From IMG/VR virus record IMGVR_UViG_3300042863_001519, positions 30,805 to 94,804 of that record: a DNA stretch of 64,000 nucleotides, one strand, 5' to 3'. A program made the translations under genes and the position numbers. The notes below the pieces were generated by a model. That model worked only from the letters and a program-made list of their open reading frames with translations, ran no database searches and was not told the origin of the DNA. The DNA comes from a virus. Positions 4,013-51,409 of the stretch are shown piece by piece; the first letter of the stretch is position 1; each line of letters begins with the position of its first letter.

Positions 4013-4642
4013 TTATGCTTGTTGTATCTTCTGCATGTACTTTACCAAGAGCTGAGAGTGTTCCTTCTGAAACTCTATCATAACATCACGGTTGCTCTTT
4101 GTCATAGATGTTGGTATCTCTGGTAGTTCTATTCCATCAAGCATTTTTGCCATCTCAATCTTCTCCTGCATTACTTTGATAAAGTCAGCAGCACTCTGTG
4201 CTTTGATAGCAGGATTACCATCTGTAATTCTTCTTGTCCACTGTCTTTTTTGCTTATCTGCTACTGGTGTAGGCTCTACTACTGGTGCCGGTGTACCTGG
4301 TTCTGTTGCAAATCCTGGCATTATTGCAGCTATTCCTGTTCCGGTTACTTCATGTACATTGTTCAGTTCCATTGTTGGTGTTGTTTCTACTGTTCTATAA
4401 GCTAATTCTGCATATTGACCTAGTTGCTCAATAATAAAATCTCTTTGATCTTCTTCACAATCATCTTCATCAAGTAAGTACTCATTTACTTGTCTTATAT
4501 CTTGTACTTTGTTAAAAATATTCAAACAGTTGACAATTACATCTGGCTTAATGTCATTGATGTAAAATACTAATTCATTACTGTCTTGTGTATCAACTAC
4601 TGCAGGTATTGCACCATGTGTGCTTAATATGTAACGATTCAT
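4013..4642 (-). CDS. hypothetical protein with Pro/Thr linker
   Basis: 209-aa ORF with A-rich leader. Confidence 0.75.
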   Translation of the reverse strand: MNRYILSTHGAIPAVVDTQDSNELVFYINDIKPDVIVNCLNIFNKVQDIRQVNEYLLDEDDCEEDQRDFIIEQLGQYAELAYRTVETTPTMELNNVHEVTGTGIAAIMPGFATEPGTPAPVVEPTPVADKQKRQWTRRITDGNPAIKAQSAADFIKVMQEKIEMAKMLDGIELPEIPTSMTKSNRDVMIEFQKEHSQLLVKYMQKIQQA

Positions 4643-4654
4643 TGTTTTCTTTTT

Positions 4655-4688
4655 AAAAAGCAGGGGAATTATTATTAGTTCCCCTGCA
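4655..4688 (-). terminator. intrinsic terminator
   Basis: GCAGGGGAA/TTCCCCTGC stem followed by a U-tract on the minus strand. Confidence 0.75.
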
Positions 4689-4701
4689 TTGTTTCAAATA
4701 A

Positions 4702-5640
4702 TTACCAATCTATCTCAGTTGGTGCTACTTTAGGACTTTCTTCTCCATCTTCTTTAAAGGTATTGTCACCAGTAACTTGATGGATACTTGGGTCAAACTT
4801 CTTCAAGAAGCAAAGCTCAAATGCACCTTTGCAACCATATTTACCAATAGCTTGTTCGTGCCATTTACTCACAGCTTTATCAGCATCCCAGTTTTTGGTA
4901 GACATTGCAAATGCAAACTTCTTAAACTTGTAACTAGAGATAAAATCACCGTACAGGTTCTGATACATTTTTGTATCACCATCTTTCTCTACTATACCTA
5001 CAAATGCAAGAGCTGCAAATGGAGAAGCAAGAGAATTACCATCACCTTTTAACTGACTACGGTATTCTTTTTCAATATAGTTATCCAGATTGCGAAACAG
5101 TTTTCCTTTATCAAAAAGAATATTGGTCTTTTCTGAAAAGAAGTTTGCTTTTCCCAACCAAGCTTGGAGGAAGTTGTAGAAGTCAGCTTCACCTTGTATT
5201 GCCTCACGAACTTTCTTCTTACCAGTAAGAGGGTTACCATCTTTGTCTTCAGTAATAAGATTACCATTCTTGTCTTTAAACTCTGTAAACCACGATGGGA
5301 GATTTTCCTCACTATCTACCCAAGTAGACATACCACTTTGGTTCACAAACTGTTTCTTACCAGATGCTTCAGAAACTACTTTCTTATCTACTATACGGAA
5401 ACGGTGATTAAACTTCTGCTTGTCGGCAGTCTGTGCTTCCATCCAGAAACTCAAAGTCAGAACTTCTTCTTGCTTATCGTTCTTGGTTTCATAAACTTGC
5501 TCACTGGCATTATCTTTCAGCTTATAGTCTAAAATTTCAGCAAGCTCTTCTTTAGAAGGATTGATTGCTAATACTCGGTCCATCATTGCAAATCCTACAA
5601 ATAACGGACGTTCTTGGGCACTACTCTTTTCTAATTCCAT
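4702..5640 (-). CDS. putative ssDNA-binding/annealing protein
   Basis: Lies beside the Sak4-like ATPase in the replication module; acidic tail ending in an aromatic residue (TEIDW); function inferred from context. Confidence 0.5.
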   Translation of the reverse strand: MELEKSSAQERPLFVGFAMMDRVLAINPSKEELAEILDYKLKDNASEQVYETKNDKQEEVLTLSFWMEAQTADKQKFNHRFRIVDKKVVSEASGKKQFVNQSGMSTWVDSEENLPSWFTEFKDKNGNLITEDKDGNPLTGKKKVREAIQGEADFYNFLQAWLGKANFFSEKTNILFDKGKLFRNLDNYIEKEYRSQLKGDGNSLASPFAALAFVGIVEKDGDTKMYQNLYGDFISSYKFKKFAFAMSTKNWDADKAVSKWHEQAIGKYGCKGAFELCFLKKFDPSIHQVTGDNTFKEDGEESPKVAPTEIDW

Positions 5641-7890: not shown

Positions 7891-8417
7891 GTTCTTTTTT
7901 GTATTATATTTTTAACAACATCAACTGTAGTTCCAAACTTGTCAGCAAGTTCCTTTCTTGTCATACACAATTGACCATTCTCATCATACTTGTTCTTTCT
8001 CCCATGCTTCCACAACTTTCTCATCTCTATCACATCTTCATCTTTTAAATTAGTGTGAGGGTTTCTTTCACCTGTAATGTTTCTTCTTTTACAAGTAAAT
8101 GACCATTTCTGATTCTCACTTGCTGTACACCACTCCAAGTTAATAAGCCGATTGTCTGTACGGATATGGTTAATATGATTTACCTGTGGCTTGTTTTCAG
8201 GATTAGGAAGAAATGTTTTTGCTACTATCCTGTGGACTTTTACAGTTTCGATTTTCCCCTGATCATTTTTTAACATTGTTCGGAGATAACCTGAACCATC
8301 TAAAGCAGGTTTCATTATTCTTTCCTGTCCTGTATTTTTCCAGTTGTAGGTCTTTATTTCACCATCTGTACTAACTTCATAACTACTGTATCCCGGTATC
8401 TTTTTCCATTGCTTCAT
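7872..8417 (-). CDS. NUMOD4-HNH homing endonuclease between the split-intein halves
   Basis: WKKIPGYSSYEVSTDG (NUMOD4); VHRIVA...QVNHINHIRTDNRLINLEW (HNH); different frame from both flanks. Confidence 0.92.
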   Translation of the reverse strand: MKQWKKIPGYSSYEVSTDGEIKTYNWKNTGQERIMKPALDGSGYLRTMLKNDQGKIETVKVHRIVAKTFLPNPENKPQVNHINHIRTDNRLINLEWCTASENQKWSFTCKRRNITGERNPHTNLKDEDVIEMRKLWKHGRKNKYDENGQLCMTRKELADKFGTTVDVVKNIIQKRTWKHLL

Positions 8418-9344: not shown

Positions 9345-11420
9345 TTAAAACAAACTTATCTGACCACTTTCTTTCTCTTTTCTATCACGTTGATATATAG
9401 GAGAAATCTTGTCAATTATCTTATTGGTTGCACGTATGTAATACGTATAATCAATACCGTAGTCGTCCCAGTTTTCAGCACTAAAAGGTTTGTTGTACAG
9501 TACCTGGAGCTCACTATCTGATTCACAATTGCTCTTCTCTGGACCTGTTTTATCACTGTTTGGGTTCTTCATCTTATACAACTTCTCACCAATACCTTTT
9601 GAGCAGTAATAACGTACTAGCTTGTTGAGATCAGTTACTGTACCAGTTTTTCTATCAACACTTCGATAGAAGTAATCCCTTGATGCTTTCTTGGCAATAC
9701 AGAAATCGAAGATGTTTCTATGACTTATCACAGTATCTTCAACCGGAATACCCTGAGTAAAGTACTTCTCTAATGCTATAGGAACAATACATTTACTCTT
9801 GTTCTTGTGCAACTCATAACTTGTAAGGAAATCACCTTTCTTTTTTACTCTTTTGTCAAGAGGTTTGTCAATAACTATTGCTTTAAACTCACCATCTTTA
9901 AATACCCAGTCAGCTTTCTTTACTGCCAGATAATCATTAACGGATGTTTGTACAAACAATTCGTACTCTACATACTCCAAGTTACCAAGAATGTCATTAC
10001 CAACTTCTTCTTCCCATGTTTTACATGCATCATAATACTTCTGTACATAATCTTGATGAATCAGTACAGTAATACCATCGGTATTCATACTAGTTATCTT
10101 GAGTGTTGGTATTTGTAGCAGATCCTCAGCTAACATAAATAGATCAACTTGACCACCAATAGTTACTTGCATACTTGCAAATGGGTCATATTGCCAATCA
10201 AACCTATCACCAAGTCGGCCAAAATTCCCATTCATTACTAATTTATAACATTCTTGGAAATTATCATACTTCTTATCACCGGTTTCCTTATACAACTTTT
10301 TAGCCTCTAGTCTCTTTGGAATGTTTATCACATATGCTTCATTCCACTTTGGTCCAAGGTGTGCAGGATAAATGTTTCTTTTACGTATGTTGTTAGGATA
10401 CTGTGAGCCTACGTCAGCATCAATTAGTAGATAACCTTTAGGTATATCAATAATTCTAGGGTTATCTGCAGAGTGTACACCACCCTTTGCAAACATTATT
10501 GTAATGTCAGTAAGAATAAATGGGAACTCCTGTTTTTCATTGAGATTAACCTTTGTCTTACCCAAGTTTGTAAAAAAGTTATTAAACTCAGCTGTATCAA
10601 AATGAGTGTAGTCAGGAAAGCAATCCTTAAATCGGAAACCTGTTTTAGTTTTCCTCTCTTTTACTTTACTATACAACTGAGCTTCATTGATCTTTGCCAG
10701 ATCCATGTACACTTTCTTGTTTAGCTCGGCACCGATCTTAACATCATTCCAGTTAATTGCAAGAGATGGAAACTTATACTCCTCAATAAGATCAAGTCGT
10801 AACTGTACTTTGTTCTTCCCTGCATAATCAGGATGATTAGTATTACCTACTGCAATGTTGTAGAGATTTGCTGTAGCAGCTACATCGTTCCAACAATACT
10901 CAATAACTTCATCAATCTCTTCAGAAGTTAACTCTTCTTTACGAAAGTCAATAGGCAATTCTTCGATGTTACCATCTAAAGAAAACTCTCCAGCCCACTT
11001 CAAAGAACATCTCTTGGCATCATTGTTGTAGTGAAACAACAGAAACAGATCAATCTGTTTGAAGTCAAGATAATGTTCTTTGTAGTGAGGTTGTAATTCG
11101 TAGTTCCTATCATCAATCGTCTTTTGTGCAAACTCAAATATAGCTCTGATGATACGTTCAACCGGCCAGTGTATCCACAATGAACAGTTATCTACTATAA
11201 ACTGAAGTACTTGGGTATCAAAGTAAACTCCATTAAAAGTACAAAATCCCCATCTGTTATACTCAATTAAATGTTTTACAAGAGCATCTAATTGATTTTT
11301 CCTAGATGAAATTTCATACTGAAATCTTTCATTAGTTTTTATATCAAGACCGCAAAACAAAAACATTGAGTAATAGGTTTCAATATCTATCACTTCTATT
11401 TTTAAATCTTCACTTTTCAT
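9345..11420 (-). CDS. polB: family B DNA polymerase
   Basis: ExoI DIETY, ExoII FNGVYFD, ExoIII YCWNDV; polymerase motifs DVGSQYP, KLVMNGNFG, NTDG. Confidence 0.93.
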   Translation of the reverse strand: MKSEDLKIEVIDIETYYSMFLFCGLDIKTNERFQYEISSRKNQLDALVKHLIEYNRWGFCTFNGVYFDTQVLQFIVDNCSLWIHWPVERIIRAIFEFAQKTIDDRNYELQPHYKEHYLDFKQIDLFLLFHYNNDAKRCSLKWAGEFSLDGNIEELPIDFRKEELTSEEIDEVIEYCWNDVAATANLYNIAVGNTNHPDYAGKNKVQLRLDLIEEYKFPSLAINWNDVKIGAELNKKVYMDLAKINEAQLYSKVKERKTKTGFRFKDCFPDYTHFDTAEFNNFFTNLGKTKVNLNEKQEFPFILTDITIMFAKGGVHSADNPRIIDIPKGYLLIDADVGSQYPNNIRKRNIYPAHLGPKWNEAYVINIPKRLEAKKLYKETGDKKYDNFQECYKLVMNGNFGRLGDRFDWQYDPFASMQVTIGGQVDLFMLAEDLLQIPTLKITSMNTDGITVLIHQDYVQKYYDACKTWEEEVGNDILGNLEYVEYELFVQTSVNDYLAVKKADWVFKDGEFKAIVIDKPLDKRVKKKGDFLTSYELHKNKSKCIVPIALEKYFTQGIPVEDTVISHRNIFDFCIAKKASRDYFYRSVDRKTGTVTDLNKLVRYYCSKGIGEKLYKMKNPNSDKTGPEKSNCESDSELQVLYNKPFSAENWDDYGIDYTYYIRATNKIIDKISPIYQRDRKEKESGQISLF

Positions 11421-12192
11421 TCTTTTTGGTTTTTATTCTATTATTTACAATAGGGTATCTATCATACATCAAAAGAAATTCCTTAATTTTTCTACAATTT
11501 GCTGCATATATTCTTACAGTAGATGTTGCACAGTTTAAATAATTTGCACATTTTTCATCATTATTAAAAGTTTCAACAACTGTGTAATCTAAATTACAAA
11601 GCAATAGTGTTCTTCTATTTTTAAAAGTTTTTCCTTTTGTTTTGCTAATTCTTTTTTCTATAGAAGATTTACTTTTTTTCTTACCTTTCCAATAATCACT
11701 TATTTTCTTTTTATGATCAATTGTTAAAAGTTTTCCTGTATTTGCTGCAATAATTGCGGATAAAGTATTAGGGTGCTGAGGTCTTCCTTTCATTTGTTTT
11801 GATTTTTTTGCCTTAAAATCATCACTATGTCGAAAACCTGCATTTGTGCCGGCTATTTGAACAATATTGTACTTTAATTCTATTGGATATTTATCTAAAT
11901 AAAATTGTTCACGAGAGAGTATAAATTTTATCATTTCTTGCTTTGAAACAAACTGACTTTTATCATACTGTTCAATAATCTCAAAATAAAAATTATCTGC
12001 ACCATACTTGTTATAAGCATTTTGCATCTTTTTACAACCGTGTACATTTTTATTTAGTTCTTTTAAATGTAGATGATACCTGTTACTAAAACTACAAAAA
12101 GAACTGCCTATATAAACTTTGTTTGAAATAGGAGTATATATTTGATATACTCCTATTTTTATACCTTCTCCTCTTATTAGTAATGATTTCAT
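11410..12192 (-). CDS. GIY-YIG homing endonuclease with NUMOD3-type repeats (probable start 12192)
   Basis: GVYQI...VYIGSS, Arg and Glu of the nuclease core, HSDDFKAKKS and HKKKIS repeats; TATTTTTG 4 nt before the ATG. Confidence 0.9.
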   Translation of the reverse strand: MKSLLIRGEGIKIGVYQIYTPISNKVYIGSSFCSFSNRYHLHLKELNKNVHGCKKMQNAYNKYGADNFYFEIIEQYDKSQFVSKQEMIKFILSREQFYLDKYPIELKYNIVQIAGTNAGFRHSDDFKAKKSKQMKGRPQHPNTLSAIIAANTGKLLTIDHKKKISDYWKGKKKSKSSIEKRISKTKGKTFKNRRTLLLCNLDYTVVETFNNDEKCANYLNCATSTVRIYAANCRKIKEFLLMYDRYPIVNNRIKTKKNEK

Positions 12193-12222
12193 TTTACAAA
12201 AATAGTAAAATTTTATCAAAGT

Positions 12223-16623: not shown

Positions 16624-18769
16624 GAGAAGCTAACCATTTGTTAAACAGATGGTCTTGAAATGCTCTTGAGCAATCTTCATGTTTTGTAAGCAGGTGCTCA
16701 TTTTCTTCTATCAAAGTAACAGCAATCTCTCTAATACCTTTTTCAAACTGCTTTGAGGAGATATAGATAGTATTGTTTTTTGCAAGACCTAGTACAGATA
16801 CCTGGCTGAATGTTACTACTTCGATAGGATAACTTATCTCATACTTCATATCAGTGAGTGCTTCAACAGCTTTCTTCAGTTGATAATCCATTTTTGGAGT
16901 AGTCTTTACAGGAATGGTAAAAATATCATTATCTTTATCAACACCACATACTTCCACTTCTGGGAAATCTTCTTTGATCTTTCTTGCCAATGATTTTGAA
17001 ACAATCAGATGCGGTTCTGTTAACCTGTCTACATAAAAACCACTAAGATCCTGATTGATAACTATCCTGTTACCAATTGCATCTCTCCATGCAGAGTTCA
17101 ATTTACGATATGAATCATGAAACTCAAGAGTTGTCTCGATAAACATTGCATCTTTAAAGGCACACTGCATAATAGTTGATGCAACATCTTTAGTTGCATG
17201 TTCCATCAGAAAGTCTCTAATTATTCTTCTTGCACCATACATATTATCTATTACTCTACTCTCGTTAATAGTAAAGTCAGGAAGATCGTAATGATACAAT
17301 GCTTCGCCTGCATCATAACATCTGATACCTCTACGATACAATATTCTCTGGTGCTTCTTACAGATATTCGGAAATACTTTCCCTACAGGTAGATCAATTA
17401 TTGCATCTGTTCTATCAAATGAGAAGTAGGTATCCCAGTTGTTGATTACTTCTTTTATCTGAGCTACATGCTCGATATAGAAACGTGTGTAACCTTCTTT
17501 ACCGGTTACTATTTCTGTACTGGGTATTACGTTATTCTCACCCTCGTCAATAGCATTAGATACAAACTCACGCACTGCCATCCAAGTATCCCACTGTGGT
17601 CCCATATCAGTAGTAAGAGATGTTTCCCTACCATCTATCAATATCTTCTCAAAGCTCTTATCTCTAAAAGCTACAGGTTCTGTTGATAGTACTAACTCCT
17701 TCTCACCAGAGAAGATACGTAATCCTATCTTAGCTTTGAGTAAAAGAGCTATTGCATACTTGTTACCTGAGCCATCAGGTATGTTAACTTATAGTTTCCT
17801 ATAAGATCGGACTATATCATCACCCTTCTCATTAAGAGTTAGGGGCCGGGCACTTATACTGGTAATTAAGAACACTATAGTTCTCCAGTAGTCTCTGAAC
17901 CTTTATAGAGTGTACTCTATACTTGGATGCTGATTGGCATATCATTTCTGACTTAGCTTTCCAGCAGTTCACCTCGGTTTTTATTTTCATCCATCTCTGG
18001 AAGGGGTTTCATGGCTCTTTTGTAATTTCTAAGTTCTAAAATAGACATAGGTTTGAGATACTCTTTTTCAAAGTTGCAACTAGCAAAATCTTTAAAATAA
18101 TATCTGTTTGCAGAATCATAAAATATAGCAGCATAAAAAGAATCTTTAAATCTTCCAATTTTTGTTGGACCAGCTCCTTTTTTTATAGTAATTGAAGAGG
18201 AATAATAATGATAAATTTTTCTACCGTTATTATCAGATGTAAGTTGTACACCTCTATATCCGGTTTTATTATCTACCCTTAATAACTTCTTTTTACTATT
18301 GTTTTCATTAGTACATACTCTAAGATTAACAATTCTATTGTCATCTTTTATGTTGTTAATATGATCAATTTGCATATTATCAGGAATTAATGTACCTGTA
18401 TGCAAAAACCAACATAATCTGTGGTATGTGCTTCTATATTCTATATTATCTACTGTAATGTAGATACATTCTCTATAACCTTTTATTGTCTTTCTTGTGT
18501 AAAGTCTATTTTTACGAATGTTGTTTATCTCACCAGTATTGAGATCATAACTAAACATACGCTTGAACACATCTTTTACTCTTTCAGAACTTGCTTCATT
18601 AAATGTTTTTCGGACTCTTTTCATGAAGCAAATATACAAAATTTTATTCTTAAAACCCAATCATTGTAGTACTATCTCTCTTGGTAGAACCACCCATCAG
18701 TGTGAGTGCATTTACATCAATTTGTCCTTTGTTCTCGATAAGGAGAAACTGCTTGTTTGTGTTTTCCAT
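16595..18769 (-). CDS. GHKL/HATPase-fold protein, 432 aa after splicing (exon 1 18769..18652, exon 2 17775..16595)
   Basis: Spliced junction restores MGGSTKRDSTTMIGF-Y-GSGNKYAIALLL; also REFVSNAIDE; C-terminal EENEH. Confidence 0.85.
17776..18651 (-). mobile_element. group I self-splicing intron with endonuclease in loop L1
   Basis: P AACUGCUGGAAA, Q AAUCAGCAUC, R UUCAGAGACUA, S GAUAUAGUCC; IGS 18004..18017 pairs with both exons; terminal G at 17776. Confidence 0.93.
17953..18624 (-). CDS. HNH-AP2 homing endonuclease (intron encoded)
   Basis: HRLCW...IDHINNIKDDNRIVNLR (HNH); NKTGYRGV...IGRF...AA..YD (AP2); TATATTTG 4 nt before ATG 18624. Confidence 0.9.
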   Translation of the reverse strand: MKRVRKTFNEASSERVKDVFKRMFSYDLNTGEINNIRKNRLYTRKTIKGYRECIYITVDNIEYRSTYHRLCWFLHTGTLIPDNMQIDHINNIKDDNRIVNLRVCTNENNSKKKLLRVDNKTGYRGVQLTSDNNGRKIYHYYSSSITIKKGAGPTKIGRFKDSFYAAIFYDSANRYYFKDFASCNFEKEYLKPMSILELRNYKRAMKPLPEMDENKNRGELLES

Positions 18770-22087: not shown

Positions 22088-22471
22088 TTATATAAGTGTT
22101 ATTGCTTTTTCAATTACTGCTTGTCTTGCTTCATGATAAGATTCTGCCGCACCTCCAACATTTATGTAACAATCAACAAAATACCAACGATATAATAACA
22201 TAGTTGTAACACCCCTGCTAGTAGCAAAATCAACTAAATCTTTATCGTTCCTAGCTATGACAATGTGAATATTACGTTTCTCTCTAAACCAATCAATGAC
22301 TTGTTGCCAGAGTGGAGCTGCAATACATTCGCCTATACTCCTGAAGTTTTTAAAATCTGTATCGATTGGTTGTATTTCTTTTTCCCCGTCAAAATAAGCA
22401 AAACACTGTTTATCGAATCCTTTTTCCCTTAAATTAAGTGCTATCTCGTATGGTACAAATTCTTCTTCCAT
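22088..22471 (-). CDS. hypothetical phage protein
   Basis: FVPYEIALNLREKGFD...APLWQQVIDWFREK pattern. Confidence 0.75.
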   Translation of the reverse strand: MEEEFVPYEIALNLREKGFDKQCFAYFDGEKEIQPIDTDFKNFRSIGECIAAPLWQQVIDWFREKRNIHIVIARNDKDLVDFATSRGVTTMLLYRWYFVDCYINVGGAAESYHEARQAVIEKAITLI

Positions 22472-22512
22472 GTTTGTATGTGTTTTTAAAAAGTTTCAGA
22501 AATAATAAAAAT

Positions 22513-22549
22513 AAAAAAGAGAGTAGTGATCGAACAACACTACTCTCTT
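22513..22549 (-). terminator. intrinsic terminator
   Basis: AAGAGAGTAGTG/CACTACTCTCTT stem plus U-tract. Confidence 0.75.
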
Positions 22550-22616
22550 AGTTTGTTGGCATACGTTTGTCTGGTGACAACACTCATGTATACCTGTATA
22601 GCCATGGCAGCTATTG

Positions 22617-22637
22617 TGGACCTGCTCGGAGTCGAAC
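22617..22637 (-). pseudogene. stranded tmRNA-like 3' end (T-loop, T-stem 3' strand, acceptor strand)
   Basis: GTTCGACTCCGAGCAGGTCCA directly after the HNH stop codon. Confidence 0.75.
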
Positions 22638-23177
22638 TTACACTGATTGATATGTTCTACCAGCACTAATATCCCTTATTACAGTCTCTTTTATTTTAAA
22701 CTGTATAGCGATGTCTTTTACTTTCTTTTCTTTAGTTGCTAATAGTCTTTTTATTTCTATAGCATTTTCTCTAGACAGCTTTCTATTGCATATAGATTGA
22801 AACTCTATTACTTTAGGCACATGATCAAACTTAGAGTAATGACCATGTACATATCTGCCATTTTGTTTTCCTTTAGCTTGTCTGAACTTGTTTACTTTAT
22901 CTTGACAGTTGTCATTGTGTGTACCTACAGACAGATGAAAAGGATTTACACATGCTGGTACATCACAAGAATGCATGATTACTTTTCCTTCTGGTATAGT
23001 TCTGTTATAGTAATACATATAAGCAACCCTATGTGCTCTATGATGTAGTTTACATCCATCTACAACTTCTTGAATAATACCATAGCCATCTCTACCTAGT
23101 CTTTTGTATAGTATACATTCGTTCTTATCTATATTCTGCAGATAAGGCTTTATTCTATTCATTACGCTTGTTGTCAT
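22638..23177 (-). CDS. HNH homing endonuclease
   Basis: DGYG...AHRVAY...MHSCDVPACVNPFHL..GT..DN..D; own TATCTTTG promoter at 23194..23201. Confidence 0.88.
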   Translation of the reverse strand: MTTSVMNRIKPYLQNIDKNECILYKRLGRDGYGIIQEVVDGCKLHHRAHRVAYMYYYNRTIPEGKVIMHSCDVPACVNPFHLSVGTHNDNCQDKVNKFRQAKGKQNGRYVHGHYSKFDHVPKVIEFQSICNRKLSRENAIEIKRLLATKEKKVKDIAIQFKIKETVIRDISAGRTYQSV

Positions 23178-23204
23178 ATCTCTATATTTTCAACAAAGAT
23201 AATA

Positions 23205-23245
23205 AAAAAGTGGAACTAATCTACATTAATAGTTCCACTTTTTTT
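23205..23245 (-). terminator. tmRNA terminator
   Basis: AAAAAAGTGGAACTA/TAGTTCCACTTTTTT inverted repeat. Confidence 0.75.
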
Positions 23246-23249
23246 GTAG

Positions 23250-23616
23250 TGGACCCGGAGGCATCCGAGAGCCTCGTCCAAACAGTGTTCCTCTCAAAAA
23301 AGTTACGACTATGACTTGTTTTTACTCTGCTGTCTTCAGAGATGCTTGAAAGTTCTGCATAATCTACATCTACTTACAACGTCAATAGTTTTTATTTTAA
23401 ACAGTCAGATTTCTCTTCTTATCTGTGGTGAATTAGGCTGCTTCTGCTACTAGAGCATTTGCAAAGCACATATTAATAATACGTGCACCTTCTTCCTGAC
23501 GAGCAACTTTTTCGTTGTTTGCATCTATTGTTTGAATCTATTTATTTAAAGGACTACATCCTTGTCCTTAGTCGCCTTTTCTACTATACTAGCTGCTGTC
23601 AAAACCAATCGGGCCC
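23250..23616 (-). ncRNA. ssrA: tmRNA; tag (A)ANNEKVARQEEGARIINMCFANALVAEAA* at 23522..23433
   Basis: 5' GGGCCCGATTGGTTTTGACAG; acceptor GGGCCCG/CGGGTCC with G3:U70 and discriminator A; resume context AATAGAT-GCA; tag ends in AA. Confidence 0.92.
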
Positions 23617-23838
23617 ATATTGTAATAATACACTCTGATCAGTTTCCTAACCAGAGTGCAAAAATAAACTAATAAACTTAATTAGTTTGCTAATTTCTCA
23701 ACAGTTTCTACAACAACATCATCATGTCCTACATCACGGTATTCATTGGCTAAATAGTCAGCTTCTTCTTTTGTAAGAAGGTAATTATTAACCTCAATGC
23801 CCCCTACCCAAACGGTGTAAATCTTTTGTTTCATAATA

Positions 23839-24102
23839 TTAGTTTGCTAATTTTTCAGCATGTTCATACTGTAACCATGTTTTATTTCGACCATCTGGGT
23901 GTTTCCAAACATTGTATTCTGTTTGATCATAGCAATAACCAGCTGCACCAAAGTGACCATTATCAACTACACATACCATGTTTGGTACAAACTCTTCATT
24001 TGATATTCTTGTAGCACCATCTGCTATAAGTGACCTTACTTTCTGATCAAAGCTTGAACCCAGTGGTAAGCTTCTGCTATCTTGGTTGATATACTTTCCC
24101 AT
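23839..24102 (-). CDS. hypothetical protein
   Basis: 87 aa; VCVVDNGHFGAAG pattern. Confidence 0.7.
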   Translation of the reverse strand: MGKYINQDSRSLPLGSSFDQKVRSLIADGATRISNEEFVPNMVCVVDNGHFGAAGYCYDQTEYNVWKHPDGRNKTWLQYEHAEKLAN

Positions 24103-26748: not shown

Positions 26749-28659
26749 TGTGTATATAGTTGCTGTTTTTGTATTTTATTTGATATATTTTCCCATGCTT
26801 GTTCAGGTGTGTTAAATCTTATAGTTATATCGTCCCCGCCTTTTTTATTTTTTATATAATACCTAAAAGCGTGTGTTCCCGATACGTTATAATCCCATTC
26901 GCAATACGCCATAGGATATACTGATAATACCTTTTCTTTGGCTGTCTGTGCCATGTGTTATTTATTTTTAGATAAAAAAAAAGATAGGGTTTATAGGTAC
27001 TCATTACAGATGTTGTTATTCTACTGTTTCTGGTATTACGTAGATAGAGGAGAGTTTGTTGCCTTTGTATACACCAGGATTAGTAGCTTTGTTATTAACA
27101 AAATACACAAAGTTATGTAATATTACCTGAGACTGTATTACAACAGCTTCTTCTGTTGTAGGAGTGTATACTTTGGCATCTCTGATATCGTCAGACATAT
27201 CACAAAATGTACTGCAGTGGTATCCGATAAAGTCATTATCTCTATTGACGTACTTAAATACTTTCTTCATTTTTGTAGTTTTTAGTAGTTGTGAATTATT
27301 CTTTTTGTTCGAAACTTCTTGAAGATATCAAAATGATCAATGTCAATAAAGATTACGTTAAATACAACTAGTGCAGTTGCTATTCCAACTATTGACTTTT
27401 CTTGTTCACTTACAGTATCTACATTTACTATTACTAGCTTTGATAGGTAAACACAAAAGATTGCCAGTAGATTGCAAAACAGTACTAGAAAGTTACTGTC
27501 TCTTGTTACTGTATCTACGTGTTTTTCTGGCAGTATCAACTCTTCTTTTTCCAACTCAAAGTAGTGGTACTTTACAACATCATAATTTGTATAGCTACTA
27601 ATATCTATTGTGAGTGGTGCTGATTCAATAAAGAAACAAATAGCTACATCGGTGTCATACATTTTTACACCCAAAGTAATATTGTTTTTCTCAACAAACT
27701 CTTTGAGTTCTTCATTATTACCAAACCATACAGAACATGTTGTATTTTGGATGTCTTTCAGTTTTATCTTTTTCATTAGATAATTGGTTGTGCAGGTGAA
27801 ACAATAATAACATTGGGGAACTTGTTCTCAAACTCATTCCAGGTACCAACAAAAGTGTATACAATACAACTTTTTGCAACTCTTTTCTTAAACGTGAATA
27901 CAAAGCTCATGATCTGTGTGTTTTTAGAGCGTGAATAATAAAATCGAAAAAAAAGGGGAGTTGAACCCCTTCCCCGGCCTTTAACCGATTTTTTTAGTTT
28001 GCTGATGGATCTACAAGATTATCTTCTGTTTCATCATCGTCATTGTCATTTCCAAATAGTTTTGTTCTCATCTCTTCCAGTTGCTGCAACTCAGCAAACT
28101 GTTCAGTTTTGTATTGGATCATGTATCCCATATAAAGCAATTCTGTTCTACTGATGTCCAATGGCAGCTCTTTCTCACATGCAACAAAGGAGTTAACACG
28201 ATTTACTTTTTCGGTTTTACCAAGTTTTTCAATAGCAGCAATAACAATGCTTACTAATTGATCATTACGTTCTTCAGACATACCAAGACTTGAAGATAAT
28301 GTACTTTCTGTGTTCTGATTTTCCATTTTGTTTGTTTTTGATTGTTAGTATTGTTATTACCAGCTATGATCCTCATGAAAGTAATCATCTTCTGACATCT
28401 GATCATTAAAAAAAGCAGCTATATCCCCATTAAGACTAAACTGATGCCGTTGATGCATATTAGATGTATTTTCCCAATACTGAGCATTTTCAGCTTCTAG
28501 ACAATCATCATGCATAAACATACCATTTGGTCTTTTGTACATTGTACCTGTAGATTCACCACAAGATGCACATTTTACTGTATCACAACCTTGTGTATGT
28601 GTGTATTTCTCAGGTAGTTCTATTTTACCTATTATACGAGGTCCTATTTGATTACTCAT
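26745..28659 (-). CDS. run of small early hypothetical genes (26745..26954, 27016..27270, 27282..27776 with two TM helices, 27994..28326, 28357..28659)
   Basis: Co-oriented ORFs with A-rich leaders and interspersed hairpins. Confidence 0.6.
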
Positions 28660-30757: not shown

Positions 30758-30809
30758 TTGTTTTATATATTAAAGGTTAAACAATACTATACTAAAAAGA
30801 AACAGGTGC

Positions 30810-38481: not shown

Positions 38482-39170
38482 TGAAATTTGAACTTTTTTG
38501 TCCGGTGTATAATGAAGAATACATGTTACCTTATATGGTTAATTGGTATAAACATAAAGTAGGTGAACACAATATAGTGTTTAATATCTATGACAATGGT
38601 TCTACTGATAATACTGTCCAAATAGCAAAAGACTTAGGTTGCAATGTAGGTGTGTTTGAAACTGGGGGACAGGTAAGAGATGACCTATTAATGGACTGGA
38701 AAAACTCTATCTGGAAAGACTCTAAAGCTGATTTTGTTATTGTATGTGACTGTGATGAGTTTGTAGATATATGTGTAGAGCAACTTAATGGATATACTCT
38801 TCTACCAACTATTGGGTATAATATGGTTGGTATACTTGGAGAAAATCCCGATATTATAGTTGATGGGGTACCATCTGAAGATATGAATAAAGTTTGTGTA
38901 TTTAATCCTGAAGCAATAAAAAACATAAATTATGTACACGGAGCTCACGTATGTAATCCAAAAGGAGAAATAAAAAAAGCTTCTCCTGTAGGATTATACC
39001 ATATGAAGTTTATATCTGAACAATATATAGTTGATAAATATAAAAGCAGTCAAAAAAGATTAAGTGATATTAATAAAAAACATGGATGGGGGTTTCAGTA
39101 TGAGATGGAAGAAGCTGCAATAAGAGTAATGTATGGACACATGGTAAATGCCAAAAAAAGAATAAGATAA
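38481..39170 (+). CDS. GT2-like glycosyltransferase
   Basis: PVYNEE, IYDNGSTDNT, VIVCDCDEF (DxD), GAH. Confidence 0.85.
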   Translation: MKFELFCPVYNEEYMLPYMVNWYKHKVGEHNIVFNIYDNGSTDNTVQIAKDLGCNVGVFETGGQVRDDLLMDWKNSIWKDSKADFVIVCDCDEFVDICVEQLNGYTLLPTIGYNMVGILGENPDIIVDGVPSEDMNKVCVFNPEAIKNINYVHGAHVCNPKGEIKKASPVGLYHMKFISEQYIVDKYKSSQKRLSDINKKHGWGFQYEMEEAAIRVMYGHMVNAKKRIR

Positions 39171-48803: not shown

Positions 48804-49871
48804 ATGAATATTAAAGTAGGAAGCAGGGTTAGTATTAAACCTTACATTAGTGGATTACCAAATGCAGGGCTTGAAAAGTATGATATGGTTGTAGCAGACG
48901 GTGCACAACATAAGGAACTTTTAGGTCTTGTAGAACGTAATGGTATTAAGTGTTATTTGACTGGTCTTAATGAACTGGCACCTGAAGTACAGAACATTAG
49001 AGATGTAGAAAAGAAAGAAGCAACTATCAGAGACATTAGAAAAACTGTGGTGTTTCTTGAAAACTCATTAGCAGGTAACTTTAGCCTTACTGAAAAAGAT
49101 ATTGATGAGTATGATGAGAAAGGAAAACCTACTGGTAAACTTTCCCCTATATTCTGGAGTAAGGTAACAATGTTTATCTCTCAGACTCCTGATAAGTTTG
49201 ATGACAAAAAGAATCGTATTCCTACCTATTGGGATGGAGTTGAAATTAAGTGTTCAAACAGTACAACATACCTTGACCCAAAGAATGCACATGACCTTAT
49301 ATTGATACATGCTATCCAAGCCGGTGGATTTCTTTGTGTTGCACCATCTATGGAAGCAGCACGAAATGCAGTAGAACCACCAAAGTGGTACTTGGATAAA
49401 GAAGAGGAGACAGCAGGTATCAAAACTGAAGTTAAGAAACTTCGTAACCAAGCTGGTGCAGAACTGCAAAAACTTTATGACAAAGATCAAACTAAGATGT
49501 TCTATGTTACTAAACTTTGTGCAGTAAACTCTTTGAGTTACAGAAAGTCTACTCCAAATGACATTATGTATGATGATTGTGATAAATACATTAATGGTGA
49601 AACAGTAGACAAGAATAAAAAACTTACTGCTGAAAAGTTTATTGAATATTGCAAACAACCATTGGCACAGTTACGTGTTCAGGCAATTGTCAAAGATTCT
49701 ACTGAAATGCAACTGTTGACTTACAAAACAGACGGTCAGCTGTATTATAATGCTACTGGTACACCAATGGGAAAGAGTGTTAATGATGTAGTGAAGTTTT
49801 TGGAAAATCCTCTAAACAATGATGTTCTTAGTAGTATTACAGATACTGTTGAAGAGGAATGGGTAAAGTAA
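48804..49871 (+). CDS. conserved crAss-like structural-module protein
   Basis: YLTGLNELAPEV, LDP.N.HDLI, FLENPLN; position after the capsid gene. Confidence 0.65.
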   Translation: MNIKVGSRVSIKPYISGLPNAGLEKYDMVVADGAQHKELLGLVERNGIKCYLTGLNELAPEVQNIRDVEKKEATIRDIRKTVVFLENSLAGNFSLTEKDIDEYDEKGKPTGKLSPIFWSKVTMFISQTPDKFDDKKNRIPTYWDGVEIKCSNSTTYLDPKNAHDLILIHAIQAGGFLCVAPSMEAARNAVEPPKWYLDKEEETAGIKTEVKKLRNQAGAELQKLYDKDQTKMFYVTKLCAVNSLSYRKSTPNDIMYDDCDKYINGETVDKNKKLTAEKFIEYCKQPLAQLRVQAIVKDSTEMQLLTYKTDGQLYYNATGTPMGKSVNDVVKFLENPLNNDVLSSITDTVEEEWVK

Positions 49872-49959: not shown

Positions 49960-50667
49960 ATGACCAACGAGTTATTACAGGTAAAATTTCAACAGCGGCT
50001 TAATAAACTATCATCTAGCGATTATGGGAACATAGAATGCTGGATGATAGCTGAAGCCTTTAACAAAGGCATGGATGCTTGGGTATCCAGGCAGTTGCAA
50101 GGTATTAATCAAACCAAGAGTACTGCAGAAGGATCTATTAGGAGTATAGACAAGCTCCAAGTAATTTTGAAACAATCTCCTCTTGCAATGGTTGATCAGG
50201 GTATTTATTGGGATGTAGATCTTCCAACTGATTATCTTGAATGGTCAAGGATAAGTGCAGATGCTCAAGCAGGAGATTGTTGTCCTCCAAGAAGACTCAA
50301 GATATTTCTTGGTGAAGAGGCCGATATGGACATGGTACTCTTAGATAAAAACAGACAACCTTCTTATGACTGGGGAGAGACAGTTGCCACAGTAATGGGT
50401 AAGAAGTTTAAAATCTATACAAACAAGTGTTTTGATATTGTCAATTCTACCATTACCTATTACAGAAAATCAATTCACATAAAGATAGAAGGATGTACTG
50501 ATCCTGATACAGGATTGATTGTACCTCCCGGAGATGGGATAGAATGTGAATTTCCAGATAACATAATAGAGATTCTTATTGATGAAGGTGCAGCAATTCT
50601 CGCAGATGATATGGACAACTATACAAAACAACAAAACTTAAATATGAATGCCGAACGCAATAACTAA
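49960..50667 (+). CDS. virion neck/ring (head-tail) protein candidate
   Basis: RLNKLSS.D, LP.DYL, PS.DW.ET, TYYR, CEF...EILIDE; crAss-like gene order. Confidence 0.6.
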   Translation: MTNELLQVKFQQRLNKLSSSDYGNIECWMIAEAFNKGMDAWVSRQLQGINQTKSTAEGSIRSIDKLQVILKQSPLAMVDQGIYWDVDLPTDYLEWSRISADAQAGDCCPPRRLKIFLGEEADMDMVLLDKNRQPSYDWGETVATVMGKKFKIYTNKCFDIVNSTITYYRKSIHIKIEGCTDPDTGLIVPPGDGIECEFPDNIIEILIDEGAAILADDMDNYTKQQNLNMNAERNN

Positions 50668-51409
50668 CATAGCAGGTATTTATAAAATTACAAATCTTGT
50701 AAATGGTAAGTTTTATATTGGTAGTACGTGTAATTTAAAAAGACGTAAGGGGAATCATTTTGCAGAACTGAATAGAAATAAACACTGTAATATTAAGTTG
50801 CAGAATGCATGGAATAAATACGGAGAAAAGGCATTTTACTTTGAAATTATATCTACCTGTCCGAAGGAATATCTTTTAAAATTAGAGTATTGGTTCATAA
50901 AAACATTATCTCCTTTTTATAATATTATTCAAGTACAGGAAGATTACAAAATAAAGATTAAATCTTTACATAAAAATAAGTTTAGAGAGTCTGTAAATCC
51001 AAGGGGATCAATACCCATATCTGTTTTTGATATAAACAATAATTTAATTGCTAATTTTGTATGTCTTTTAAGATGTGCAGAGTTTTTAAATACTCCAGTT
51101 TCGGGTATAAGTAAATGTCTTAAAAAAGGAAGACCTTTAAACAATAAATATATTTTTAAATATACCAAGAAAGATAATATTGAATATATAGATAATCGAT
51201 TAACAAGAGCAAAACTCTTTACAAAAGAAGGTCAGTTCTTAGGATTATTTGATACTTATGAACAGTTAGCAAAACATTTAAGTGTAAGTAAGGATACAGT
51301 TTATAGAACTATTAATAAAAAGACTACATTTTTATCGGCCAAATATCTTATATTTAAAGAGAAAGATAAAATGCAAGTACTGAATCAAAGTGCAGAACGT
51401 AACAATTAA
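50648..51409 (+). CDS. GIY-YIG homing endonuclease with NUMOD1-type HTH repeats
   Basis: AGIYKITNLVNGKFYIGS...R...H...LQNAWNKYG; AT-rich. Confidence 0.92.
   Translation: MPNAITNIAGIYKITNLVNGKFYIGSTCNLKRRKGNHFAELNRNKHCNIKLQNAWNKYGEKAFYFEIISTCPKEYLLKLEYWFIKTLSPFYNIIQVQEDYKIKIKSLHKNKFRESVNPRGSIPISVFDINNNLIANFVCLLRCAEFLNTPVSGISKCLKKGRPLNNKYIFKYTKKDNIEYIDNRLTRAKLFTKEGQFLGLFDTYEQLAKHLSVSKDTVYRTINKKTTFLSAKYLIFKEKDKMQVLNQSAERNN

Follow-up and report, generated by a model that had tools for sequence, protein, structure and literature searches.

Why should a phage gene for transfer-messenger RNA (tmRNA) be followed, on the far side of a nuclease gene, by an orphan tmRNA 3′ end? The question is raised by a 64,000-nucleotide (nt) stretch of viral DNA, hereafter termed the window (positions 30,805 to 94,804 of IMG/VR virus record IMGVR_UViG_3300042863_001519), whose minus strand carries a one-piece tmRNA gene (23247-23616), a terminator hairpin (23204-23244), an HNH nuclease gene (22638-23177) and an orphan canonical tmRNA 3′ end (22617-22636). 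This layout had been proposed in an initial annotation made by a model from the letters of the sequence, and every element of it except a promoter was recovered in place on the minus strand. Here, we argue for what we consider a fairly probable explanation, namely that a free-standing HNH homing endonuclease, from a clade specialised for tmRNA, has come to occupy the 3′ end of the phage tmRNA gene by replacing its terminus, and that the unusual T-loop of the tmRNA is a cleavage-resistant allele.

A nuclease gene between two tmRNA 3′ ends

The complete tmRNA gene, referred to below as the resident gene, matches Rfam family RF00023 over the whole model (positions 1-374) at 62.1 bits, the gathering score being 47. 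In the Rfam alignment, its 3′ end reads GGAC, GAGGC (23275-23271), UCUCGGAU (23270-23263), GCCUC (23262-23258), CGGGUCC (23257-23251), A (23250) and CUA, which reproduces the parse of the initial annotation: a T-stem, an 8-nt loop lacking TTCGA, an acceptor strand, a discriminator A at 23250 and then CUA rather than CCA. The T-arm GAGGC/UCUCGGAU/GCCUC (23275-23258), which folding also predicts as a hairpin, has the expected stem of 5 base pairs (bp), but its non-canonical loop (23263-23270), at 8 nt, departs from the conserved 7-nt T-psi-C loop (UUCGAnn); the match to the model still stands. That no CCA is encoded had been noted correctly, yet it is an ordinary feature, since the tmRNAs of relatives also lack one. 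The acceptor 5′ strand GGGCCCG (23616-23610) pairs with CGGGUCC at 7/7 positions, the third pair being the G3.U pair that confers alanine identity. The tag reading frame (23433-23522, minus strand) opens with the resume codon GCA at 23522 and runs for 29 codons to a TAA at 23435-23433, giving an unusually long tag peptide (29 residues) that ends AEAA. ARAGORN made no call for this gene.

The nuclease gene encodes a free-standing HNH homing endonuclease of 179 amino acids and is a separate open reading frame (ORF) with its own start and stop codons, lying inside neither an intron nor an intein. Its earlier recognition as an HNH gene was borne out by matches to Pfam HNH_3 (E = 6e-9) and to the PHROG HNH endonuclease families (4e-21). 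The protein consists of an N-terminal HNH_3 domain and a C-terminal three-helix domain resembling a helix-turn-helix (HTH), and H69, C71, D72, C76, N78, H81 and N90 are invariant in ten homologues. The predicted structure (predicted local distance difference test score, pLDDT, 75.5) has the homing endonuclease I-HmuI as its top match in the PDB, which is a weak one (E = 0.008, template-modelling (TM) score 0.37), while a sequence search of the PDB with the protein matched no chain.

Starting one base past the stop codon of this gene, the orphan piece (22617-22636) comprises a T-loop TTCGACT, a T-stem 3′ strand CCGAG, an acceptor 3′ strand CAGGTCC and a discriminator A. As the initial annotation had it, a canonical T-loop with the 3′ strands of both stems follows directly upon the nuclease, and it is the sole match to a T-loop/acceptor pattern in the 64 kb, where 0.01 would be expected by chance. 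Its acceptor strand and trailer, CAGGTCCACAATA, are identical to the 3′ end of the tmRNA of an HNH-free relative, L039.

The window comes from a viral contig of 94.8 kb with an estimated completeness of 74%, and the phage sequence was detected in 24 sequencing runs, all of them lake-water DNA metagenomes, with no RNA run listed. The layout is no assembly artefact, since positions 22387-23843 are reproduced without a difference by an independent 1457-nt contig from a lake metagenome; contigs from four metagenome runs show the same order of tmRNA, HNH gene and fragment.

A nuclease clade that sits behind phage tmRNA genes

When the HNH protein and an alignment of its homologues were used as queries, 160 loci were recovered, the closest of which lie nearly all directly 3′ of a phage tmRNA gene. 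In L064, L065 (identical to L143), L066, L067, L068, L069 (identical to L073) and L144, full-length tmRNAs recognised by Rfam end 55-100 nt before the HNH start codon, and L128 has a tmRNA-type 3′ end 5′ of its HNH start. A maximum-likelihood tree of 35 HNH proteins places the tmRNA-adjacent ones in a single clade (support 95/95, or 98/93 with L128 included), apart from other phage HNH_3 genes. Within it, the window protein groups with P0001 (94% identical), P0002 (70%), the nuclease of L054 and P0003-6 in a subclade with support of 99/98. Two members of the clade, L062 and L070, lack a neighbouring tmRNA gene. When phage records were searched with the nuclease by tblastn, the full-length matches listed had only about 35% identity or less and no link to tmRNA. 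With members directly behind phage tmRNA genes in about ten loci, the clade appears to be dedicated to these genes, and the proposal of a mobile HNH element associated with tmRNA holds well beyond the window. The locus itself had no blastn match among 50,697 phage records, and exact DNA patterns for the tmRNA 5′ end and for an orphan 21-mer found no match in viral contigs, from which near-identical records may have been excluded.

The relatives also bear on the idea, put forward in the initial annotation, that a cassette was inserted at the end of the tmRNA gene, as several of them carry direct repeats of 13-17 nt of that end. In L066 and L067, a perfect 17-nt direct repeat running from T-loop position 4 to the discriminator A brackets spacer and HNH gene; in L068, the repeat of the tmRNA end is 13 nt long and also perfect, and in L065 it is 15 nt with one insertion or deletion. 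The bracketing repeats start in the T-loop or at the boundary of loop and stem. No direct repeat of the tmRNA end surrounds the nuclease in L064, L069 or L144.

The most informative relative is L054, whose nuclease is 65% identical to that of the window. The two sequences are colinear at 65% nucleotide identity from upstream of the tmRNA gene to position 22614 of the window, just past the orphan piece, where homology stops. The tmRNA of L054 matches RF00023 over its full length at 38.5 bits, with a T-arm CTCGG/GGCAGTG/CCGAG and an acceptor strand CACCTCC, and is followed by the HNH gene and then by an orphan piece of its own, AGT-CCACC-CGGGTCC-A. As colinearity extends through the fragment, the layout has been inherited and conserved and is not a one-off. 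An endonuclease gene between a complete gene end and a displaced duplicate of that end is found in the window, in L054 and in L065-L068.

Where the two ends could have come from

In both the window and L054, the resident and orphan ends differ from each other, and they do so in a reciprocal manner: the orphan strand CCGAG of the window is the resident T-stem strand of L054, whereas the orphan CGGGTCC of L054 is the resident acceptor strand of the window. This pattern fits an ancestral element that carried both CCGAG and CGGGTCC, after which modules of the tRNA-like domain would have been replaced separately in each lineage. A comparison with L022, an HNH-free relative, points the same way. Its tmRNA (4623-4908) is a permuted, two-piece phage tmRNA (RF04321, 56.8 bits), and its tRNA-like domain agrees with that of the window at 21/22 nt at the 5′ end, while the differences at the 3′ end are confined to the loop and closing pair; beyond this domain, the two RNAs are unrelated. 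An exchange of the tRNA-like domain as a module would account for such near identity.

It could instead be supposed that no foreign end was ever involved and that the insertion duplicated the phage's own tmRNA 3′ end locally. The two copies would since have diverged on the spot, the upstream copy being held by selection and changing its stems in a compensatory way, the downstream copy being free to vary. The perfect repeats of L066/L067 and L068, which match each phage's own tmRNA, are what this supposition would predict. The whole block shared by the window and L054 at 65% identity, from which it follows that the insertion predates their split, also suits it, as do the identity of their orphan pieces at 14/19 positions, about the regional average, and the reciprocal strands. 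We nevertheless regard it as improbable: the near identity of the window to the tRNA-like domain of L022, an otherwise unrelated and permuted tmRNA, suggests module exchange, and it would be unparsimonious for all 5 T-stem pairs to have changed in the selected copy while the free one kept a perfect TTCGACT loop.

A different reading would make the orphan piece part of the mature molecule. Group I introns in the T-loop of tmRNA are well known (PMC11915505), and if about 630 nt between the odd loop and the orphan piece were removed from the RNA, the mature T-arm would be CUCGG/UUCGACU/CCGAG, completed by the downstream acceptor strand. Pairing is indeed possible between CUCGG(A) in the resident loop and (U)CCGAG in the orphan piece, as it is, save for one C-A mismatch, between the orphan acceptor strand and the resident 5′ acceptor strand, and a G precedes the orphan T-loop. 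However, no match to Intron_gpI was found in 22450-23700 at E values up to 10, and the nuclease ORF fills nearly the whole interval. The boundary rules of such introns (-1 U, omega G; PMC11915505) do not hold here, the 5′ boundary falling after a G with 6 extra nt before the T-stem. The upstream copy, moreover, already provides a complete tRNA-like 3′ half with a strong terminator next to it, and nothing in L054 can pair with the T-stem or acceptor strands of the orphan piece of that phage. An intron-form or far-end tmRNA is accordingly judged highly improbable. As a positive control for the intron search, the window contains a group I intron at 17788-18048 on the minus strand (RF00028, 70.9 bits, full-length model).

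Integrative elements, finally, often target the T-loop sublocation of tmRNA genes and restore the gene end (PMC11915505), so the orphan piece might be the remnant of an integrase attachment site, or a captured piece of host ssrA or tRNA-Ala, with no relation to the nuclease. The initial annotation had seen no integrase, and the whole 94.8-kb record gave no match to the tyrosine integrase family PF00589, serine recombinases not having been searched. The nuclease-linked layout also recurs in several unrelated phage backgrounds. Exact matches to the orphan 20-mer numbered 10 in 596 Gb of prokaryote genomes, mostly in high-GC Actinomycetota, which is about chance level; since no match falls within a tRNA or tmRNA gene recognised by ARAGORN, there is no sign that the piece is host ssrA, and we give this origin almost no weight. 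That the nuclease might also cut host ssrA or tRNA genes, as the initial annotation suggested, is conjecture.

A further candidate role for the orphan piece, as a tRNA-like 3′ end of the nuclease mRNA, was rejected, there being no complementary strands in the window beyond those of the tmRNA itself and none in L054.

An altered T-loop as a possible immunity allele

Viral sequences were searched with a pattern in which the outer T-stem pairs and acceptor strand of the window were fixed and the loop was left free. All 34 loci recovered have a canonical 7-nt loop (TTCGA in 33, TTTGA in one), and no nuclease homologue was present in any of the 34 over the stretch fetched. The T-loop is likewise canonical in the HNH-free relatives L003, L039 and L022. 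Comparison with relatives that lack the HNH gene had been suggested in the initial annotation as a check on its claim, and it left the claim standing, as L003, L039, L022 and 33 further loci have canonical loops and no downstream fragment. The contrast is sharpest with L022, where 12 and 15 flanking nt are identical to those of the window and every difference falls in the loop and closing pair. Relative to a canonical loop, that of the window has one inserted base, two substitutions and a swapped closing pair, with the stems unchanged.

This result divides the claim that a cassette had entered at the T-loop and left behind a replacement T-arm. A nuclease element at the T-arm, a stranded canonical end and the lack of an integrase are all as described. 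The resident T-arm, on the other hand, is not obviously foreign, since 34 HNH-free phage tmRNAs have exactly its stems and acceptor strand and only a patch of 9-10 nt, made up of loop and closing pair, differs.

Non-canonical loops were seen solely beside HNH genes, namely in the window, in L054 (GGCAGTG) and in L063 (GGCAGAG), and were absent from about 21 distinct HNH-free loci. The difference between 3/10 HNH-adjacent and 0/21 HNH-free loci gives a Fisher p of about 0.03, the loci not being independent. In L054 (2555-2580) and L063 (about 771-800), which share the T-loop GGCAG(T/A)G, the D-loop analogue has changed together with the T-loop: its 5′ part reads ACACAG(A)TTTTGA and the GG has been lost. 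This GG is kept in ten out of ten canonical-loop tmRNAs compared, which read ..GG(T/A)TTTGA or ..GGAATCGA, and also in the window. The tag core RQEEGARIINMCFANA is identical in the window and L054, the only two nucleotide changes being between synonymous Ile codons. Taken together, the co-variation with the D-loop, the intact stems and the conserved tag core argue that the odd-loop tmRNAs are working variants and not wrecks, and we infer that the altered tmRNA is charged and functional. No SmpB gene was found in the phage record, so SmpB of the host would be needed.

In L063 (region 50-1031), the HNH gene immediately precedes the acceptor piece of what appears to be a permuted tmRNA, and a 115-nt and probably interrupted tRNA follows at 917-1031.

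The mechanism that we infer, including target site, immunity and direction of transfer, is as follows. A phage carrying its own standard tmRNA gene would have received, at the 3′ end of that gene, a free-standing HNH gene of the I-HmuI type. By analogy with SegB of phage T4, which recognises GGTTCRANTCC in the DNA of the T-psi-C stem-loop (PMC2330249), the nuclease would recognise the canonical T-arm DNA of tmRNA genes in nuclease-free phages and make a cut or a nick at that site; repair would then copy the gene in, together with adjoining tmRNA sequence. The T-arm and acceptor end of the working tmRNA, which lies 5′ of the nuclease gene, are complete, and the canonical end stranded behind the nuclease stop codon, from T-loop to discriminator, would mark where the element entered, in the region of the T-loop. 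The altered resident loop would resist cleavage while still folding as a T-arm, and such a target-site immunity allele is in our view probable, the case for it being plausible rather than compelling. The resident end may have arrived with the nuclease by co-conversion or may be native.

Several observations weigh against this account. There is no pairing between the orphan CCGAG and the 5′ T-stem strand GAGGC of the resident gene, nor between the orphan piece of L054 and the resident acceptor strand there, so that a plain history of insertion into the T-loop of the resident gene is too simple; in the window the orphan and resident 5′ acceptor strands do pair, with one mismatch (C-A). The resident and orphan ends would then come from different alleles or have greatly diverged, and either of them may have been borne by the cassette. 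The positions of the duplications are all that points to the target site, and the structural likeness to I-HmuI is weak. No empty-site joint was seen among the contigs of the four runs, although contigs cannot show absence, and no close nuclease-free relative of the window phage was found among lake metagenome contigs. Canonical T-loops are retained by seven or eight of the HNH-adjacent tmRNAs; an odd loop is thus no general requirement for coexistence, and immunity by loop change is optional at best. T4 itself tolerates SegB sites in its own tRNA genes (PMC2330249).

The last two of these points also speak for a homing element at the tmRNA end whose odd loop has nothing to do with immunity, and which reflects drift under relaxed selection, a repair scar in the form of a templated snap-back patch, or some other adaptation, for instance to evade host nucleases or modification enzymes with specificity for the T-loop. 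The loop hexamer CUCGGA (23264-23269) is complementary to UCCGAG of the orphan piece (22625-22630) and, with one G.U pair, to UCCGGG at the junction of resident T-stem and acceptor (23254-23259). Quasi-palindrome or template-switch repair would leave just such a complementarity, though it may also be due to chance. An 8-nt loop without TTCGA may also impair function. Decay, however, sits poorly with stems, G3.U acceptor pair and tag frame that are intact and with a tag core that differs in L054 by two synonymous changes; in L054 and L063 the loop change is paired with one in the D-loop analogue and looks maintained, and odd loops occur only beside HNH genes. An account without immunity therefore seems to us rather unlikely, and the cleavage-resistant allele is preferred.

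A bolder suggestion, which is doubtful and offered only tentatively, is that phage tmRNAs, under repeated attack by a homing nuclease specific to tmRNA, were driven to rebuild an otherwise universal T-loop, with the D-loop analogue following suit in L054 and L063. Some tmRNAs would then function without a T-psi-C motif, more than one solution to the tRNA 'elbow' could exist, and selfish nucleases would act to diversify what is otherwise the best-conserved region of a stable RNA.

Relation to known mobile elements

Parts of the arrangement have precedents. SegB of T4 is, like the window nuclease, a free-standing nuclease beside phage genes for small stable RNAs; it drives the inheritance of itself and of the flanking RNA genes, and its carrier may keep cleavable sites (PMC2330249). 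Unlike the window nuclease, an HNH enzyme whose tmRNA target is conjectural, SegB belongs to the GIY-YIG family and lies between complete tRNA genes, with no duplicated or stranded gene end. Such ends are found in fungal mitochondria, where mobile endonuclease genes termed mORFs bring with them a new C-terminus for the gene and leave the native one stranded, in atp6 of Allomyces macrogynus and in atp6, atp9, cox2 and nad3 of Glomus (PMC3630166). There too, the endonuclease gene separates a working terminus, in some cases of foreign origin, from the displaced native terminus; the two differ in sequence, and the host gene remains intact with no need for splicing. The mORFs, however, encode LAGLIDADG or GIY-YIG enzymes and invade protein-coding genes of organelles, whereas the window has an HNH gene in a phage, in the gene of a structured RNA whose 5′ half must pair again with the new end.

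The position has its own parallels. In intron-form tmRNA genes, group I introns sit in the T-psi-C loop and a few of them carry LAGLIDADG genes (PMC11915505), so that mobile elements, some of them encoding a homing endonuclease, enter at the same hotspot; the window differs in having no intron core, in its splice boundaries, in its complete upstream copy and in the nuclease family. Islands and prophages integrated at tmRNA genes resemble it in that the gene receives a new 3′ end from the inserted DNA, the old end being left stranded further downstream, yet the window has no tyrosine integrase, the site is in a phage genome and not in a bacterial chromosome, and the repeats, besides being short, are not identical in the window. 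I-HmuI, a nicking HNH enzyme from the polymerase intron of SPO1 (PDB 1U3E), likewise combines an HNH domain with a C-terminal helix-turn-helix, but it is intron-encoded and the structural match to it is weak, as given above.

The full-text literature searched contained neither an HNH clade at phage tmRNA 3′ ends nor terminus replacement in an RNA gene. If our reading is right, this would be a third route by which a selfish nuclease gene can invade an essential structured RNA gene and leave it functional, a complete 3′ end being supplied or kept while the other copy is stranded; terminus replacement is known for the protein genes of fungal mitochondria but not for RNA, in which a new end has in addition to re-form the stems. 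A clade dedicated to tmRNA would offer a testable explanation for mosaic tRNA-like domains and lost canonical T-loops, and a nuclease that reads T-arm DNA would represent a new specificity for conserved RNA-gene motifs and a possible tool. There is also a consequence for annotation: ARAGORN misses these tmRNAs and Rfam misses that of L054 at the gathering score, so phage tmRNAs with remodelled T-arms are under-annotated.

The spacer and neighbouring features

The tmRNA and HNH genes are separated by a 72-nt spacer. Directly 3′ of the tmRNA, the intrinsic-terminator-like hairpin (23244-23204, minus strand) has 15 bp, with an A-run, a 9-bp GC-containing core and a U-run, and the terminator that had been placed here was supported by folding (-22.7 kcal/mol, z = -6.6, with 0/200 shuffles as stable); a simple terminator scanner made no call at 23204-23244 because the loop is 11 nt long. 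About 27 nt remain between terminator and HNH ATG. The promoter that had been predicted in front of the HNH gene was the one element not recovered, a consensus scan of the minus strand finding no sigma-70-like site in the spacer. A second helix of the spacer fold forms a small hairpin from the last 23 nt before the HNH start codon (23178-23200, minus strand), which may occlude the ribosome-binding region. Behind the orphan piece, a fold of 22640-22495 contains a second strong terminator hairpin (22517-22549, minus strand), a 12-bp helix followed by a U-run, which is probably the original terminator of the tmRNA, now left behind the HNH gene and the fragment.

The spacer has features of its own in the relatives. 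In L064, L065-L068, L069 and L144, the interval between tmRNA end and HNH start is conserved and structured, with a long hairpin followed by GGGTAAnGC, and the stem shows compensatory substitutions (GGCACG/TGTGCC, GTGACA/TGTCAC, GGTGC/GCACC and GATTGC/GCAATC); the spacer of the window and L054 is different. Located 5′ of the nuclease start, a recurrent spacer heptamer, (G/C)TTCCAC or CCTCCAC, is shared by the window (23205-23211), L054 (about 2963-2969), L062 (about 2450-2456), L065-L068 and L128. It resembles the acceptor 3′ end and discriminator of a tmRNA (..TCCA-C) and may be an older remnant or a binding site.

Upstream of the tmRNA gene, a motif consisting of GGTTAGGAAACTGAT, 8 nt and ATTATTACAA (23620-23652, minus strand) occurs at the same position in L054 (about 2521-2552). 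In both phages it stops 2-4 nt before the tmRNA 5′ end, and it is a candidate for the tmRNA promoter of this phage group. Between the tmRNA gene and an 87-amino-acid gene, the minus strand of the window has an ORF of 50 amino acids (23682-23834) that is absent from the otherwise colinear L054. Elsewhere, a terminator hairpin at 27954-27975 (minus strand) mimics a T-arm, reading AGGGG-TTCAACT-CCCCT and then a T-run, to which the tmRNA model gives a partial match of 17 nt.

Genes of the window specify a terminase, a portal protein, a major head protein and a DNA polymerase of family-B type, and the genome is dense in homing-type nucleases. Two more HNH_3 genes lie at 8109-8240 and 18295-18423 (38913-39044 and 49099-49227 of the record, C1). 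An ORF of 269 amino acids (11410-12219, minus strand) that overlaps the start of the DNA polymerase gene (9345-11420) has a GIY-YIG-like N-terminus (..VYQIYTP..VYIGSS..), though no Pfam match at E = 0.001. The same genome also holds a second case of terminus duplication, in which a GIY-YIG/NUMOD1 gene (50648-51409, plus strand) overlaps the end of a virion gene (49960-50667) and the end of its product, ..LNQSAERNN, is a diverged copy of the ..LNMNAERNN that ends the preceding virion protein, with four synonymous differences in five codons.

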